NCBI GenBank assembly: GCA_964526075.1
Contig: CAZGIA010000004.1
Location: 1 to 24,994, forward strand
Length of the DNA stretch: 24,994 nucleotides
Origin: an uncultured Candidatus Saccharibacteria bacterium
Lineage (GTDB): Bacteria; Patescibacteriota; Minisyncoccia; Phycocordibacterales; Zambryskibacteraceae
Direction: 5' to 3'
Made by a program: the position numbers and the translations under genes. Positions 3,528-7,246 of this stretch are shown piece by piece (the first letter of the stretch is position 1; every line of letters starts with the position of its first letter). Below the pieces are notes generated by a model that made no database searches, was not told where the DNA came from, and was given only the letters and a program-made list of their open reading frames with translations.

Positions 3528-4899
3528 TCCAGTTTTACTGTTTATCCTTAGTTTTGTAGGAGGCGTCTTTGTCTCTTCATTCTTTTTTCTACCACCACTA
3601 ATTTTCCTTTTGATACTCTTTGTTGCTGTAGCGATTACTGTTGTTGAAAAAGTTTGGTATGGGAAAGTCGGATCCGAAGTCCTGTTACTGGTATTGTTAT
3701 TAATTGCTTTTTCTCTTGGTTCTTTGCGTTATGCTGTCAAGGATTTTCATGAACTTCAGTTACCGACAGAGACTGGAGTGGTGGTGAGTGAACCAGAAGA
3801 CAAAGATAATGTTAGAAGATTTGTTTTCCTTGCTGATAATAACGAGAAAGTGTTAGTTTCTGCTCCTCTCTACCATCAAGTACAATACGGTGACAAGGTG
3901 AAAGTGTCTGGGAAATTTGAAAAACCCGGTTTAATCGAATCTGAAGATAGTAGTCGTCCGTTTGATTATGGAAAGTATCTAGCTAAGGATGATATTTATT
4001 ACACTTTGAGCTTTGCCAATGTTTTAGTACTTTCAAGCGGGCATGGCAATCCGATAAAAGCCACCCTTTTTAAGATTAAGAGAAATTTTGTTGAGCAGGC
4101 TAAAACTATTTTGGCTGAACCATATGCTAGCCTACTTATGGGTCTTGTGGTCGCAGGACGGGATGCCTTACCTGCAAATATTCTTGAGGAGTTTCGTCGG
4201 GCTGGAGTGATTCATATTGTAGTTCTTTCAGGATTCAATATCACACTTATTGCTGACTTTCTCAGGAAACTTTTTCAGAATTTTTTCCTACGTTTGGGTT
4301 GGGCTCGCTTTCAGCATGCTCCAGCTTTTGCTTCGATTGTGGGTGTGACCTTGTTTGTCATTATGACTGGTGGAGAAGCTACTGTAGTAAGAGCAGCCCT
4401 CATGGCTTTTACCGTCATTGTGGCAGGTCTGTTTGGTCGAAATTATTCTGCTCCACGGGCACTTCTTATGGCTGGTTTTCTAATGCTATTACAAAATCCG
4501 AAGATATTAGTTTTCGATCCCTCTTTCCAGCTTTCTTTCCTTGCTACTCTTGGTCTCATTTATCTTGTGCCCTTAGTCGGACAATGGATAAAATGGGTTA
4601 CAGAGAAGTGGGAAATTAAACAAACTTTGGCTCAAACTATTGCTACTCAAATAGCTGTTCTTCCACTACTTATCTATCTAGTCGGTGATGTCTCCTTGGT
4701 TTCTTTGCCAGCCAATCTTCTCATTCTTCTTATCGTACCGTACACTATGCTGGTTGGATTTCTGGCGGTAATTATTTCGTATGTGAGTGTTGTAATTGCT
4801 TGGCCAATCACTTTGGTAACTCATCTGTTGCTATCGTGGATTCTTTTTGTCTCGCACTTCTTGGGTTCTTTGTCGTTTGCTACTGTGAAGCTTTTTTAA
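3496..4899 (+). CDS. comEC: ComEC/Rec2 competence membrane protein (no MBL domain)
   Basis: Multi-TM protein with AGVIHIVVLSGFNI, VVRAALM, SFQLSFLATLG and ANLLIL. ATG 3496 was chosen over the ORF-track start 3373 to minimise overlap with rnhA; the start is uncertain. Confidence 0.88.
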   Translation: MEQVQITNFLNPVLLFILSFVGGVFVSSFFFLPPLIFLLILFVAVAITVVEKVWYGKVGSEVLLLVLLLIAFSLGSLRYAVKDFHELQLPTETGVVVSEPEDKDNVRRFVFLADNNEKVLVSAPLYHQVQYGDKVKVSGKFEKPGLIESEDSSRPFDYGKYLAKDDIYYTLSFANVLVLSSGHGNPIKATLFKIKRNFVEQAKTILAEPYASLLMGLVVAGRDALPANILEEFRRAGVIHIVVLSGFNITLIADFLRKLFQNFFLRLGWARFQHAPAFASIVGVTLFVIMTGGEATVVRAALMAFTVIVAGLFGRNYSAPRALLMAGFLMLLQNPKILVFDPSFQLSFLATLGLIYLVPLVGQWIKWVTEKWEIKQTLAQTIATQIAVLPLLIYLVGDVSLVSLPANLLILLIVPYTMLVGFLAVIISYVSVVIAWPITLVTHLLLSWILFVSHFLGSLSFATVKLF

Positions 4900-6273: not shown

Positions 6274-6305
6274 TAAATAATAGATATTTGTATGCTTTGT
6301 GAAAA

Positions 6306-6343
6306 ATACGTTATAATGTCACTATCGTGAGTCAATAACGTAT
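6306..6343. repeat. 38-bp imperfect palindrome, copy 1 (overlaps -10 TATAAT 6312-6317 and ATG 6342)
   Basis: ATACGTTAT-AATG-TCAC-TATC-GTGA-GTCA-ATAACGTAT, with 9-bp perfect outer arms. Confidence 0.85.
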
Positions 6344-6908
6344 GGGTAAATTAGAAATAAGTAGTAGCAAAAAGACCAGAAATAACAATTTACAAAAATT
6401 GATTCTTGAGACCGTTTCTCTGGCAGGATTCATGAGTATTGCTCTCGTAGCACCGAATGTCCTGAAGTCAATGAATAAACTTGGTTTAATTCCTAATTTC
6501 AGACAGGAGGAATATATTGCGTCATCTGCCAGTAAATTAGCTAAGCGTGGCTTGCTTGTTTTCGATGGTAGGAAATATTGTTTAACTGCTACTGGTGAGA
6601 GCTTATTGCGTCGTTGGCAACTAAGTGATTTTAAAATTGAAAAGCCAAAAAGGTGGGATCGAAAGTGGCGCGTAATTATCTTTGATATTCCAGAGAAGAA
6701 AAGAAAGAGTCGCGATCAGATCAGAACCTTATTTAAATTAGCGGGATTCTATCTGTTGCAGGATAGCGTCTGGGTCTACCCGTATGAGTGTGAAGATATT
6801 CTTACCCTTCTTAAATCTGATTTAGGAGTAGGAAAGAATGTTCTCTATCTTATTGTCGATGAATTGGAAAATGATAAATATCTACGAGCATCATTTGGTC
6901 TTAAATAA
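6342..6908 (+). CDS. PaaX-like protein: winged-helix plus Cas2-like ferredoxin-fold domain
   Basis: wHTH-like SKLAKRGLLVFDGRKYCLTATG followed by WDRKWRVIIFDIPEKKRKSRDQIRTLFKLAGFYLLQDSVWVYPY, typical of the PaaX central/Cas2-like domain. Confidence 0.8.
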   Translation: MGKLEISSSKKTRNNNLQKLILETVSLAGFMSIALVAPNVLKSMNKLGLIPNFRQEEYIASSASKLAKRGLLVFDGRKYCLTATGESLLRRWQLSDFKIEKPKRWDRKWRVIIFDIPEKKRKSRDQIRTLFKLAGFYLLQDSVWVYPYECEDILTLLKSDLGVGKNVLYLIVDELENDKYLRASFGLK

Positions 6909-6922
6909 AAGTTTAATTATCT

Positions 6923-6960
6923 ATACGTTACTTACTCACGATCGTAAGATAGTAACGTAT
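6923..6960. repeat. 38-bp imperfect palindrome, copy 2 (15 nt after the stop codon)
   Basis: ATACGTTAC-TTAC-TCAC-GATC-GTAA-GATA-GTAACGTAT; 28/38 identical to copy 1 without gaps. Arms extend to 11 bp (6922-6932 / 6951-6961). Confidence 0.85.
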
Positions 6961-7003
6961 AATAAGACTGTCACGTCGAGAAGTAAATTTGTAAATAGAG
7001 TAT

Positions 7004-7246
7004 TTAAATCACTCCTGCTTTCTTGAGGACGCTGTGGGCACCATTTTTGGCAATAGTTTTGATAGCTTTAGTGGAGAGGGTGAGAGTGATAGTTTTCTTG
7101 AGTTCAGGTATATAGATACGCTTTCTTTGGAGATTGGGGTATTTCCTAACCATTCCCGTAGGATTAAATTGGGTAGCACGAGTTCGGTTGGAGTAACCTC
7201 CACCCATTTTTGAGCCCTTTTTAGTAATAATACATATCTTAGTCAT
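7004..7246 (-). CDS. rpmB: 50S ribosomal protein L28
   Basis: MTKICIITKK..GGGYSNRTRA..RKYPNLQRKRIYIPE..LSTKAIKTI. Confidence 0.88.
   Translation of the reverse strand: MTKICIITKKGSKMGGGYSNRTRATQFNPTGMVRKYPNLQRKRIYIPELKKTITLTLSTKAIKTIAKNGAHSVLKKAGVI

Follow-up and report, generated by a model that had tools for sequence, protein, structure and literature searches.

A truncated PaaX-like gene between two matched 38-bp palindromes in an ultra-small bacterium of the Zambryskibacteria

What is a small PaaX-like gene doing between two copies of the same palindrome, the second of which lies behind its own stop codon? The question is raised by a stretch of 24,994 bp (the window) on contig C4 of an assembly of 462,519 bp (45 contigs, 92.8% complete) from an ultra-small bacterium of the Zambryskibacteria. 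The gene codes for a protein of 188 aa, which we call mini-PaaX, and is bracketed by an upstream palindrome, U (copy 1), and a downstream one, D (copy 2). We lean modestly towards reading this mini-PaaX module as a dimeric autorepressor that would have two reading heads per subunit and a second cognate site downstream of its gene. The features discussed below are listed here in window coordinates; positions within a site are counted from the dyad centre, on which all sites were anchored, with k1 as the centre and k19 as the outer end.

6306-6343, no strand: U, 38-bp palindrome, a probable operator that covers the -10 box and reaches two bases into the start codon
6313-6318, plus strand: candidate -10 box TATAAT in the left arm of U, with promoter activity predicted from the letters
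6342-6908, plus strand: mini-PaaX gene, 188 aa, winged helix at about residues 1-95 and Cas2-like PaaX_M domain at about 103-188
6504-6545, plus strand: codons of residues 55-68, the predicted recognition helix of the winged helix-turn-helix (wHTH), which co-vary with the outer-arm bases k13-18
6693-6779, plus strand: codons of residues 118-146, helix alpha-1 and the beta2-beta3 hairpin of the Cas2-like domain, which co-vary with the inner-core bases k2-6
6923-6960, no strand: D, 38-bp palindrome, a putative second cognate site between the stop codon of the gene and the convergent stop codon of rpmB
7004-7246, minus strand: rpmB, the convergent neighbour

U and D are identical at 28 of 38 positions (74%) in an ungapped alignment and form the top direct-repeat family that the repeat finder returned for the window. 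Common to both are the outer arms, ATACGTTA and TAACGTAT, and the centre TCAC.ATCGT. Self-complementary pairs number 14 of 19 in U and 16 of 19 in D, and D was also returned by the repeat finder as a 20+20 inverted repeat with 85% complementarity. The pattern of shared bases has two matches in the window, namely U and D themselves, with 0.00 expected from 100 shuffles. The ATG at 6342 shares the last two bases of U, while the TAA stop codon occupies 6906-6908; D starts 14 nt after it and ends 43 nt short of the rpmB stop. The neighbours of the locus are a gene of the metallo-beta-lactamase (MBL) fold and rpmB, and neither inspection of the sequence nor the repeat finder gave a CRISPR array at the locus. 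The anatomy given in the original prediction, i.e. two matched palindromes at these positions with conserved arms and centre, the first of them lying on the -10 box and the start codon, and no array or cas1, was thus borne out.

The layout is not peculiar to this genome. Relatives were found at no fewer than 540 loci in genome contigs and at least 586 loci in metagenome contigs, which by record title belong to Candidatus Zambryskibacteria and neighbouring Parcubacteria/Paceibacteria groups. A representative library of 1.84 billion proteins contained 1,711 clusters at 50% identity (E <= 1e-10), almost all of them of 180-200 aa, and the source databases label these relatives as Cas2, PaaX or hypothetical. 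It had been suggested that homologues should be flanked on both sides by cognate palindromes, and this was found for the great majority: in 130 of 163 unique cassettes (~80%) the similarity of the U and D flanks exceeded the 95th percentile of mismatched pairs, and in 162 of the 163 the shared flank was limited to the palindrome. Cassettes of related genomes are non-independent samples, and all such counts should be read accordingly. In the 104 well-defined cassettes U ends exactly 2 nt into the ATG in 66, whereas D is placed more freely, its offset from the end of the stop codon ranging from -1 to +99 nt, and the U-D distance is 601-731 bp. A sense-strand TATAAT is present in 33 of 66 U copies (50%) compared to 13 of 66 D copies (20%). 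In other respects the positions conserved in D are those conserved in U, and the four half-sites are all equally close to the consensus of their cassette, which suggests that D is kept as a site for binding and is not a duplicate in decay. The downstream neighbour is convergent in 45 of 92 cassettes against a background expectation of ~22% (from simple ORF calls, with shared synteny uncorrected).

Could D be only a terminator, of its own gene or of the convergent rpmB, or even a chance repeat? It does occupy the gap between the stop codons of two converging genes, and a stem can form in it. However, D is AT-rich and has no T-run on either strand, the terminator scan made no call at U or D, and the genome uses classical GC-rich, T-tailed terminators elsewhere. 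The shuffles gave a chance expectation of 0.00, and the match of D to its own U in ~80% of the 163 cassettes, whatever the neighbour, contradicts the reading of D as nothing more than a terminator or a chance repeat. We give this explanation almost no credence.

If the palindromes are binding sites of the protein encoded between them, residues and bases should change together. In the sites, symmetry rises above the expectation from composition mainly in two blocks, k2-6 and k11-18, the centres of which are ~10.5 bp apart; in the spacer k7-10 and at the centre k1 it is near chance. The C at k3 does not vary between sites, nor does the G that pairs with it (C-N4-G). Mutual information between protein and site showed that the inner-core bases track residues 121, 125, 128, 138 and 141 (z up to 29). 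Based on the AlphaFold2 (AF2) model described below, residues 121, 125 and 128 form one face of the helix 118-134, with the spacing i, i+4, i+7, and residues 138 and 141 belong to the beta-hairpin of the Cas2-like domain. The outer-arm bases track residues 54-65, i.e. the recognition helix (z up to 25), and residues 15-17. The original prediction had expected co-variation with the recognition helix of the wHTH; this was found for the outer arm, but it was only part of the picture, as the Cas2-like domain is also involved, through the inner core. The counts of the individual combinations in 104 cassettes were as follows.

K121 with G at k4: 50 of 53
R121 with A at k4: all 27 A
D125 with C at k5: 45 of 60
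N125 with T at k5: 13 of 15
N141 with G at k2: 13 of 14
Y58 with G at k15: 35 of 36
S61 with T at k14: 47 of 55
R61 with C at k14: 20 of 21

Phylogenetically independent pairs were counted on a tree built without the co-varying columns. For K121/G, D125/C and N141/G five to six co-switches each were obtained, with approximately no counter-switches (p 0.03-0.06 each). The protein of the window (R121, D125, Y58, S61) fits its own site. Within its genome the outer arms read ACG in all three paralogs with Y58; in the five that lack Y58 the G is replaced by A, giving ACA, or CCA for the paralog on contig C10. Cognate bracketing and co-variation with the protein together suggest that the palindromes are, as predicted, a protein-binding dyad of the enclosed gene.

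The two-block symmetry and the co-variation favour direct reading of duplex DNA, in which two successive major grooves would be contacted per half-site. A different possibility is that the palindromes act as hairpins, in RNA or in single-stranded DNA, and that the Cas2-like domain binds or cleaves the stem-loop, e.g. in the processing of mRNA ends or on replication-linked hairpins. U and D both fold (-12.9 to -18.3 kcal/mol, z -3.3 to -5.3), half-site co-variation would look alike on a hairpin stem, and some Cas2 and VapD relatives are RNases. On the other hand, sense-strand G:T pairs are not clearly above A:C pairs (57 compared to 37 in U, 54 compared to 48 in D), there is no G:U wobble bias, and pairing at k7-10 and k1 is near chance. 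As the -10 box occupies positions 8-13 of U, transcription would be expected to begin close to the dyad centre, which would leave the left arm of U out of the mRNA. The wHTH recognition helix is, moreover, a reader of the duplex major groove. For these reasons the suggestion of hairpin RNA processing sites, also part of the original prediction, found no support, and we regard a hairpin as a very unlikely functional form.

The protein itself matches PF20803 (PaaX_M), for which the Pfam entry reads "PaaX protein central Cas2-like domain", with E 2.5e-20 and 72.8 bits (cut-off 24) over residues 103-174; by sequence the winged helix gave only a weak HTH_45 match (E 0.006). The AF2 model, computed from an alignment of 93 sequences, has a predicted local distance difference test score (pLDDT) of 79 and shows a helix-strand-helix-helix-wing arrangement at residues 3-95, with the recognition helix at 55-68, followed by a Cas2-type beta-alpha-beta-beta-alpha-beta domain with helix alpha-1 at 118-134 and the beta-hairpin at 137-146. 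In a Foldseek comparison of the model with the PDB the best match was E. coli PaaX (8a39, E 1.2e-5, 183 columns), followed by Rv0674 (3kfw) and, from rank 3, Cas2 chains. Asp115, the Asp of the Cas2-type strand beta1, is invariant in the 93 sequences and is not kept in E. coli PaaX or Rv0674. A single-sequence search of the PDB and a PHROGs search gave no match for the protein, and PADLOC returned weak Cas2 and winged-helix matches only.

Despite these similarities the protein is neither PaaX proper nor Cas2. With the PaaX model TIGR02277 it scored 32 bits against an equivalog cut-off of 264.55. There was no match to PF08223 (PaaX_C), the chain ending at residue 188, right after the Cas2-like domain. 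No paa genes are adjacent, and the other paralogs are found in unrelated housekeeping contexts. With the Cas2 model TIGR01573 the score was 23.7 bits (cut-off 24.5), over residues 110-150 only, and Cas1 (PF01867) had no match in the 92.8%-complete genome, whereas control genomes do match. An HUH/Y1 transposase was also considered and rejected: PaaX_M and the weak HTH are the only matches of the protein, and the eight PF01797 genes of the genome lie elsewhere.

The autorepressor that we favour would work as follows. The 188-aa protein would bind its own 38-bp dyad as a dimer, each winged helix reading one outer arm (ATACGTTA). One helical turn further inward, the inner half-core (TCAC beside C-N4-G) would be read by the Cas2-like domain of each subunit, through its helix alpha-1 and its beta-hairpin. 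Binding at U would repress transcription of the gene itself, because U holds the -10 box and overlaps the ATG; U is thus probably an autorepressed promoter. D would be a second full-strength site, which may reinforce autorepression through co-operative or looped binding, may insulate the unit from its convergent neighbour as a roadblock, or may do both. The whole unit would be dispensable: it would sit in conserved intergenic slots, be inherited mostly vertically, often be lost and sometimes be replaced by another lineage, and it would leave behind or spawn solo palindromes. The anatomy of the unit, its conservation in the family and the co-variation of protein and site are observed; binding, repression, the dimer and the role of D we infer from sequence.

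Some observations weigh against this reading, or at least against its simplest form. The outer-arm/wHTH pairs showed only two to three independent switches, and the co-variation of the wHTH is less secure because of this. A cruciform or single-stranded stem would produce the same half-site co-variation as duplex reading. No clear signal was obtained for helical phasing of the U-D spacing. A plain autorepressor does not explain the solo copies, the stacked copies and the range of zero to nine copies per genome, which are described below, and the invariant Asp115 hints at a function beyond binding.

Based on tblastn and PF20803 searches, the genome has eight full-length mini-PaaX paralogs (46-64% identity) and one distant one. 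All nine PaaX_M genes are bracketed, upstream and downstream, by their own matched palindrome. The outer arms of the paralogs are related (e.g. ATACGTTA, ATACATTA, CTACATCA and CCCATTATAA), but the inner cores differ, e.g. TCAC-GATC-GTGA, TCAC-TGGA-GTGA, GCC-TATA-GGC, CGC-TATA-GCG and CAGC-GATC-GCTG. In the whole genome there are 43 38-bp palindromes with at least 15 of 19 pairs, compared to 1-2 in shuffled sequences, and most of them are of the mini-PaaX type. A family-specific scan found 37 sites, all 37 of them intergenic. About 23 palindromes in the 462 kb are solo copies between other genes; their cores match a cassette, with one to four copies per class. For three palindrome classes the assembly contains no cognate gene. 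Palindromes of two different classes are also stacked head to tail at three loci (L067:1536-1609, L068:1488-1561 and L065:5139-5212), where they overlap by exactly 2 nt (AT), as U does with the ATG.

One of the classes without a cognate gene, TCAC-TATA-GTGA, was seen on contig C5 (L065:1328-1904; G000:C5:19827-20403), where two such palindromes bracket an unrelated ORF of 133 aa and sit inside a direct repeat of ~90 nt. This ORF was considered as a possible mini-PaaX relative and rejected, as it gave no Pfam match and no profile match to mini-PaaX.

The solo copies raise the possibility that the paralogs are ordinary transcription factors, with the solo palindromes as operators of the adjoining housekeeping genes and D as the operator of its neighbour. 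All the solo copies are intergenic, several of them upstream of genes, and 13 of the 66 D copies carry a sense TATAAT as noted above. One solo palindrome, at C4:29618 and beyond the window, precedes ndk. It was absent from all 29 congener loci examined, which have an orthologous ndk without the site, and it lies upstream of ndk's own promoter. Furthermore, at least three solo sites, like D at the present locus, are flanked by the 3' ends of two converging genes and have no promoter at hand to regulate; about half of the downstream neighbours of cassettes are convergent, and the neighbours differ between slots and have no common function. Control of a regulon of neighbouring genes is therefore distinctly unlikely as the role of the family.

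The ndk-proximal palindrome is followed by ATGGGTTTAGAAA, which resembles a relic of the MG(K)LE start of a cassette protein. In this region (L004:1501-1600; G000:C4:29618-29717) the ORF call for ndk starts at the ATG that ends the solo palindrome, and the true start, judged by the congeners, is ATGCATCC, ~60 nt downstream and behind its own -10 box. The map-ndk spacer in the genus ranges from overlapping genes to ~108 nt.

How the unit came to its place was examined by comparison with congeners. The number of copies per genome varied from zero to nine among 37 congeners, and several near-complete genomes had none. The interval between the MBL-fold gene and rpmB (window 6274-7003; loci L037-L064) varies between species of the genus: five species have the two genes abutting or separated by no more than 36 bp, six species hold a cassette, and other species hold unrelated ORFs of ~100-300 aa, among them one minus-strand ORF of ~240 aa in three species. 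Intervals without the cassette were also without the palindrome. The empty junctions that the original prediction proposed to look for in relatives were thus found in congeners. Comparison of flanks placed the cassettes of the genome in syntenic slots common to congeners. In approximately unbiased (AU) tests one lineage per slot was accepted for the slots labelled D, E and F, and rejected for slots A, B and C (p 0.016, 0.0006 and 0.004), the value for the MBL-rpmB slot being p 0.016; the groups for these tests were defined from the flanks after a first tree had been inspected. The rejections imply that occupants were replaced, or that two ancestral copies were differentially lost.

These results bear on the proposal that the palindromes are the ends of an active one-gene element, cut or recombined by the Cas2-like domain with its invariant Asp, a movement like that of repetitive extragenic palindromes (REP) and REP-associated tyrosine transposases (RAYT) with a non-HUH protein. 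The range of copy number and the near-complete genomes without copies, the species-dependent state of the MBL-rpmB interval, the AU rejections in slots A, B and C, the absence of the ndk-proximal palindrome from the 29 congener loci and the exact 2-nt overlap of stacked palindromes of different classes all speak for movement, as does Asp115, which is invariant as in Cas2. The cassette on contig C16 is flanked by a direct repeat of 144 nt with 95% identity (L072:1361-1504 and 2168-2311; G000:C16:2860-3003 and 3667-3810), which includes a downstream-type palindrome and ~53 nt of the 3' end of a convergent 487-aa gene; it is a duplication or insertion footprint, not shown by the other 162 cassettes. 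The genome also has eight genes for IS200/RAYT-like Y1 transposases (PF01797; C2:4990-5643, C4:32438-33055, which is beyond the window, C2:13316-13948, C7:10824-11498, C14:3592-4242, C1:6578-7288, C42:201-455 and C9:14093-14740). At least five of the eight are bracketed by their own short, GC-richer hairpins in the classical layout of a REPtron. The copy numbers of mini-PaaX and RAYT-like genes correlated with a Spearman coefficient of 0.67 in the 37 congeners (not phylogeny-corrected), and four congeners had neither.

Against active movement, the paralogs of the genome are only 46-64% identical, so no recent transposition has occurred, and slots are syntenic across the genus, with slots D, E and F compatible with vertical descent. 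The four half-sites showed no hybrid pattern of the att type, as cross-pairing between the copies was no better than pairing within a site. Long target-site duplications were absent in 162 of the 163 cassettes, in which flanking repeats are limited to the palindrome. The cassette was intact in contigs of four metagenomes, and no deletion form was found in them; loose metagenome ends at 6923/6960 are accounted for by a paralogous solo copy at C21:696. There are only one to four solo copies per class, and a solo copy with a relic of the 5' end of the gene fits decay better than transposition of the palindrome. The prediction of a single-gene mobile cassette therefore stands in so far as copy number is patchy and slot occupants have been replaced, and is weakened by the lack of recent copies, hybrid sites and a deletion variant; as an active element at present we consider the unit a fairly unlikely, though not negligible, case. 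A cassette of the integron or lox type, moved by site-specific recombination, was rejected, as there is no adjacent recombinase (the single PF00589 gene of the genome, C12:5458-6021, is not adjacent to the locus) and no hybrid half-site.

The sequencing runs that carry the locus are DNA metagenomes only. In contigs of two to three of the four metagenome runs ~9 extra bases were seen past the rpmB stop, at window 6993-6996, a strain-level indel.

Full-text literature searches (PaaX, Cas2-like, Patescibacteria, PaaX_M, PF20803) found no published description of the mini-PaaX family or of the bracketed layout. Relative to the literature found, four features appear to be new, namely the truncated architecture, the additional site downstream of the gene, the multiplication of orthogonal paralogs in genomes this small, and the base-specific co-variation with the Cas2-like domain. 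The genomes of these bacteria are of ~450-600 kb and code for very few regulators; all the same, the present one devotes nine genes and about forty 38-bp sites to a family that has itself as its sole conserved target. If our reading of the autorepressor is correct, nature offers in this family a collection of repressor/operator pairs that are orthogonal to one another, and the code from residue to base can be read in part (K/R at 121, D/N at 125, Y or I/V at 58, S/R at 61). It would also be a new use of the Cas2 fold, bearing on the origins of Cas2 and PaaX, and a second, independent example of a partnership between a gene and a palindrome in the style of REP and RAYT. Of practical concern is that many relatives are at present mislabelled as Cas2 or PaaX in databases.

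More speculatively, the Cas2 fold may here be a sequence-specific reader of DNA, and the protein with its two sites may form a self-propagating, REPtron-like element built on a non-transposase protein and diversified into orthogonal pairs in the smallest bacterial genomes; the Asp might then cut or copy at the dyad centre. We hold this wider view only tentatively and would sooner expect it to be wrong than right.

Of the known systems, PaaX (E. coli, Pseudomonas; a phenylacetyl-CoA-responsive repressor; PDB 8A39 and 3L09; TIGR02277, with the families PaaX (PF07848), PaaX_M and PaaX_C) gave the best structural match, and it too has an N-terminal winged helix followed by a Cas2-like domain. In E. 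coli the PaaX operator has the sequence TGATTC-N27-GAATCA, and the protein occludes, and thereby represses, the promoter of its own gene (PMC9493321), so that both the long-dyad design and autoregulation have a precedent. In both cases short arms lie about three helical turns apart in a long dyad, 6-N27-6 in PaaX and 8-N22-8 here. PaaX is however longer (~305-316 aa compared to 188 aa), it alone has the PaaX_C effector domain for aryl-CoA sensing, and it has not retained the Cas2-type Asp that is kept here. The mini-PaaX unit is further set apart by a second cognate site behind the gene and by its nine paralogs with distinct sites in a 0.46-Mb genome. The Cas2-like domain of PaaX has been described only as a dimerisation motif, whereas here the inner-core bases co-vary with it.

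Cas2 (TIGR01573, PF09827) shares with mini-PaaX the ferredoxin-like fold, the beta1 motif ending in Asp (FDIP here) and a Q-x-S-V-aromatic strand. Cas2 dimers lie on duplex DNA in the Cas1-Cas2 integrase complex, and Cas2 is not known to read base sequence. In mini-PaaX the domain is fused to a winged helix, its residues track specific bases, and the genome is without Cas1.

With REP/RAYT systems the unit has in common a single gene flanked by its own class of palindrome, solo intergenic copies, several gene-bearing classes per genome, mostly vertical inheritance in fixed places, and a protein and repeat that evolve together. The differences are that there is no HUH/Y1 transposase and no evident transposition chemistry, that there are one to four solo copies per class compared to tens to hundreds for REP, and that U overlaps the start codon and would double as a promoter. 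Looping repressors (lac O1/O2, gal OE/OI and deo) likewise have a second operator hundreds of bp downstream of the promoter-proximal one. In the mini-PaaX unit, where the spacing of 601-731 bp shows no clear helical phasing, this putative second operator lies, unlike in lac, gal or deo, beyond the stop codon of the regulator's own gene.

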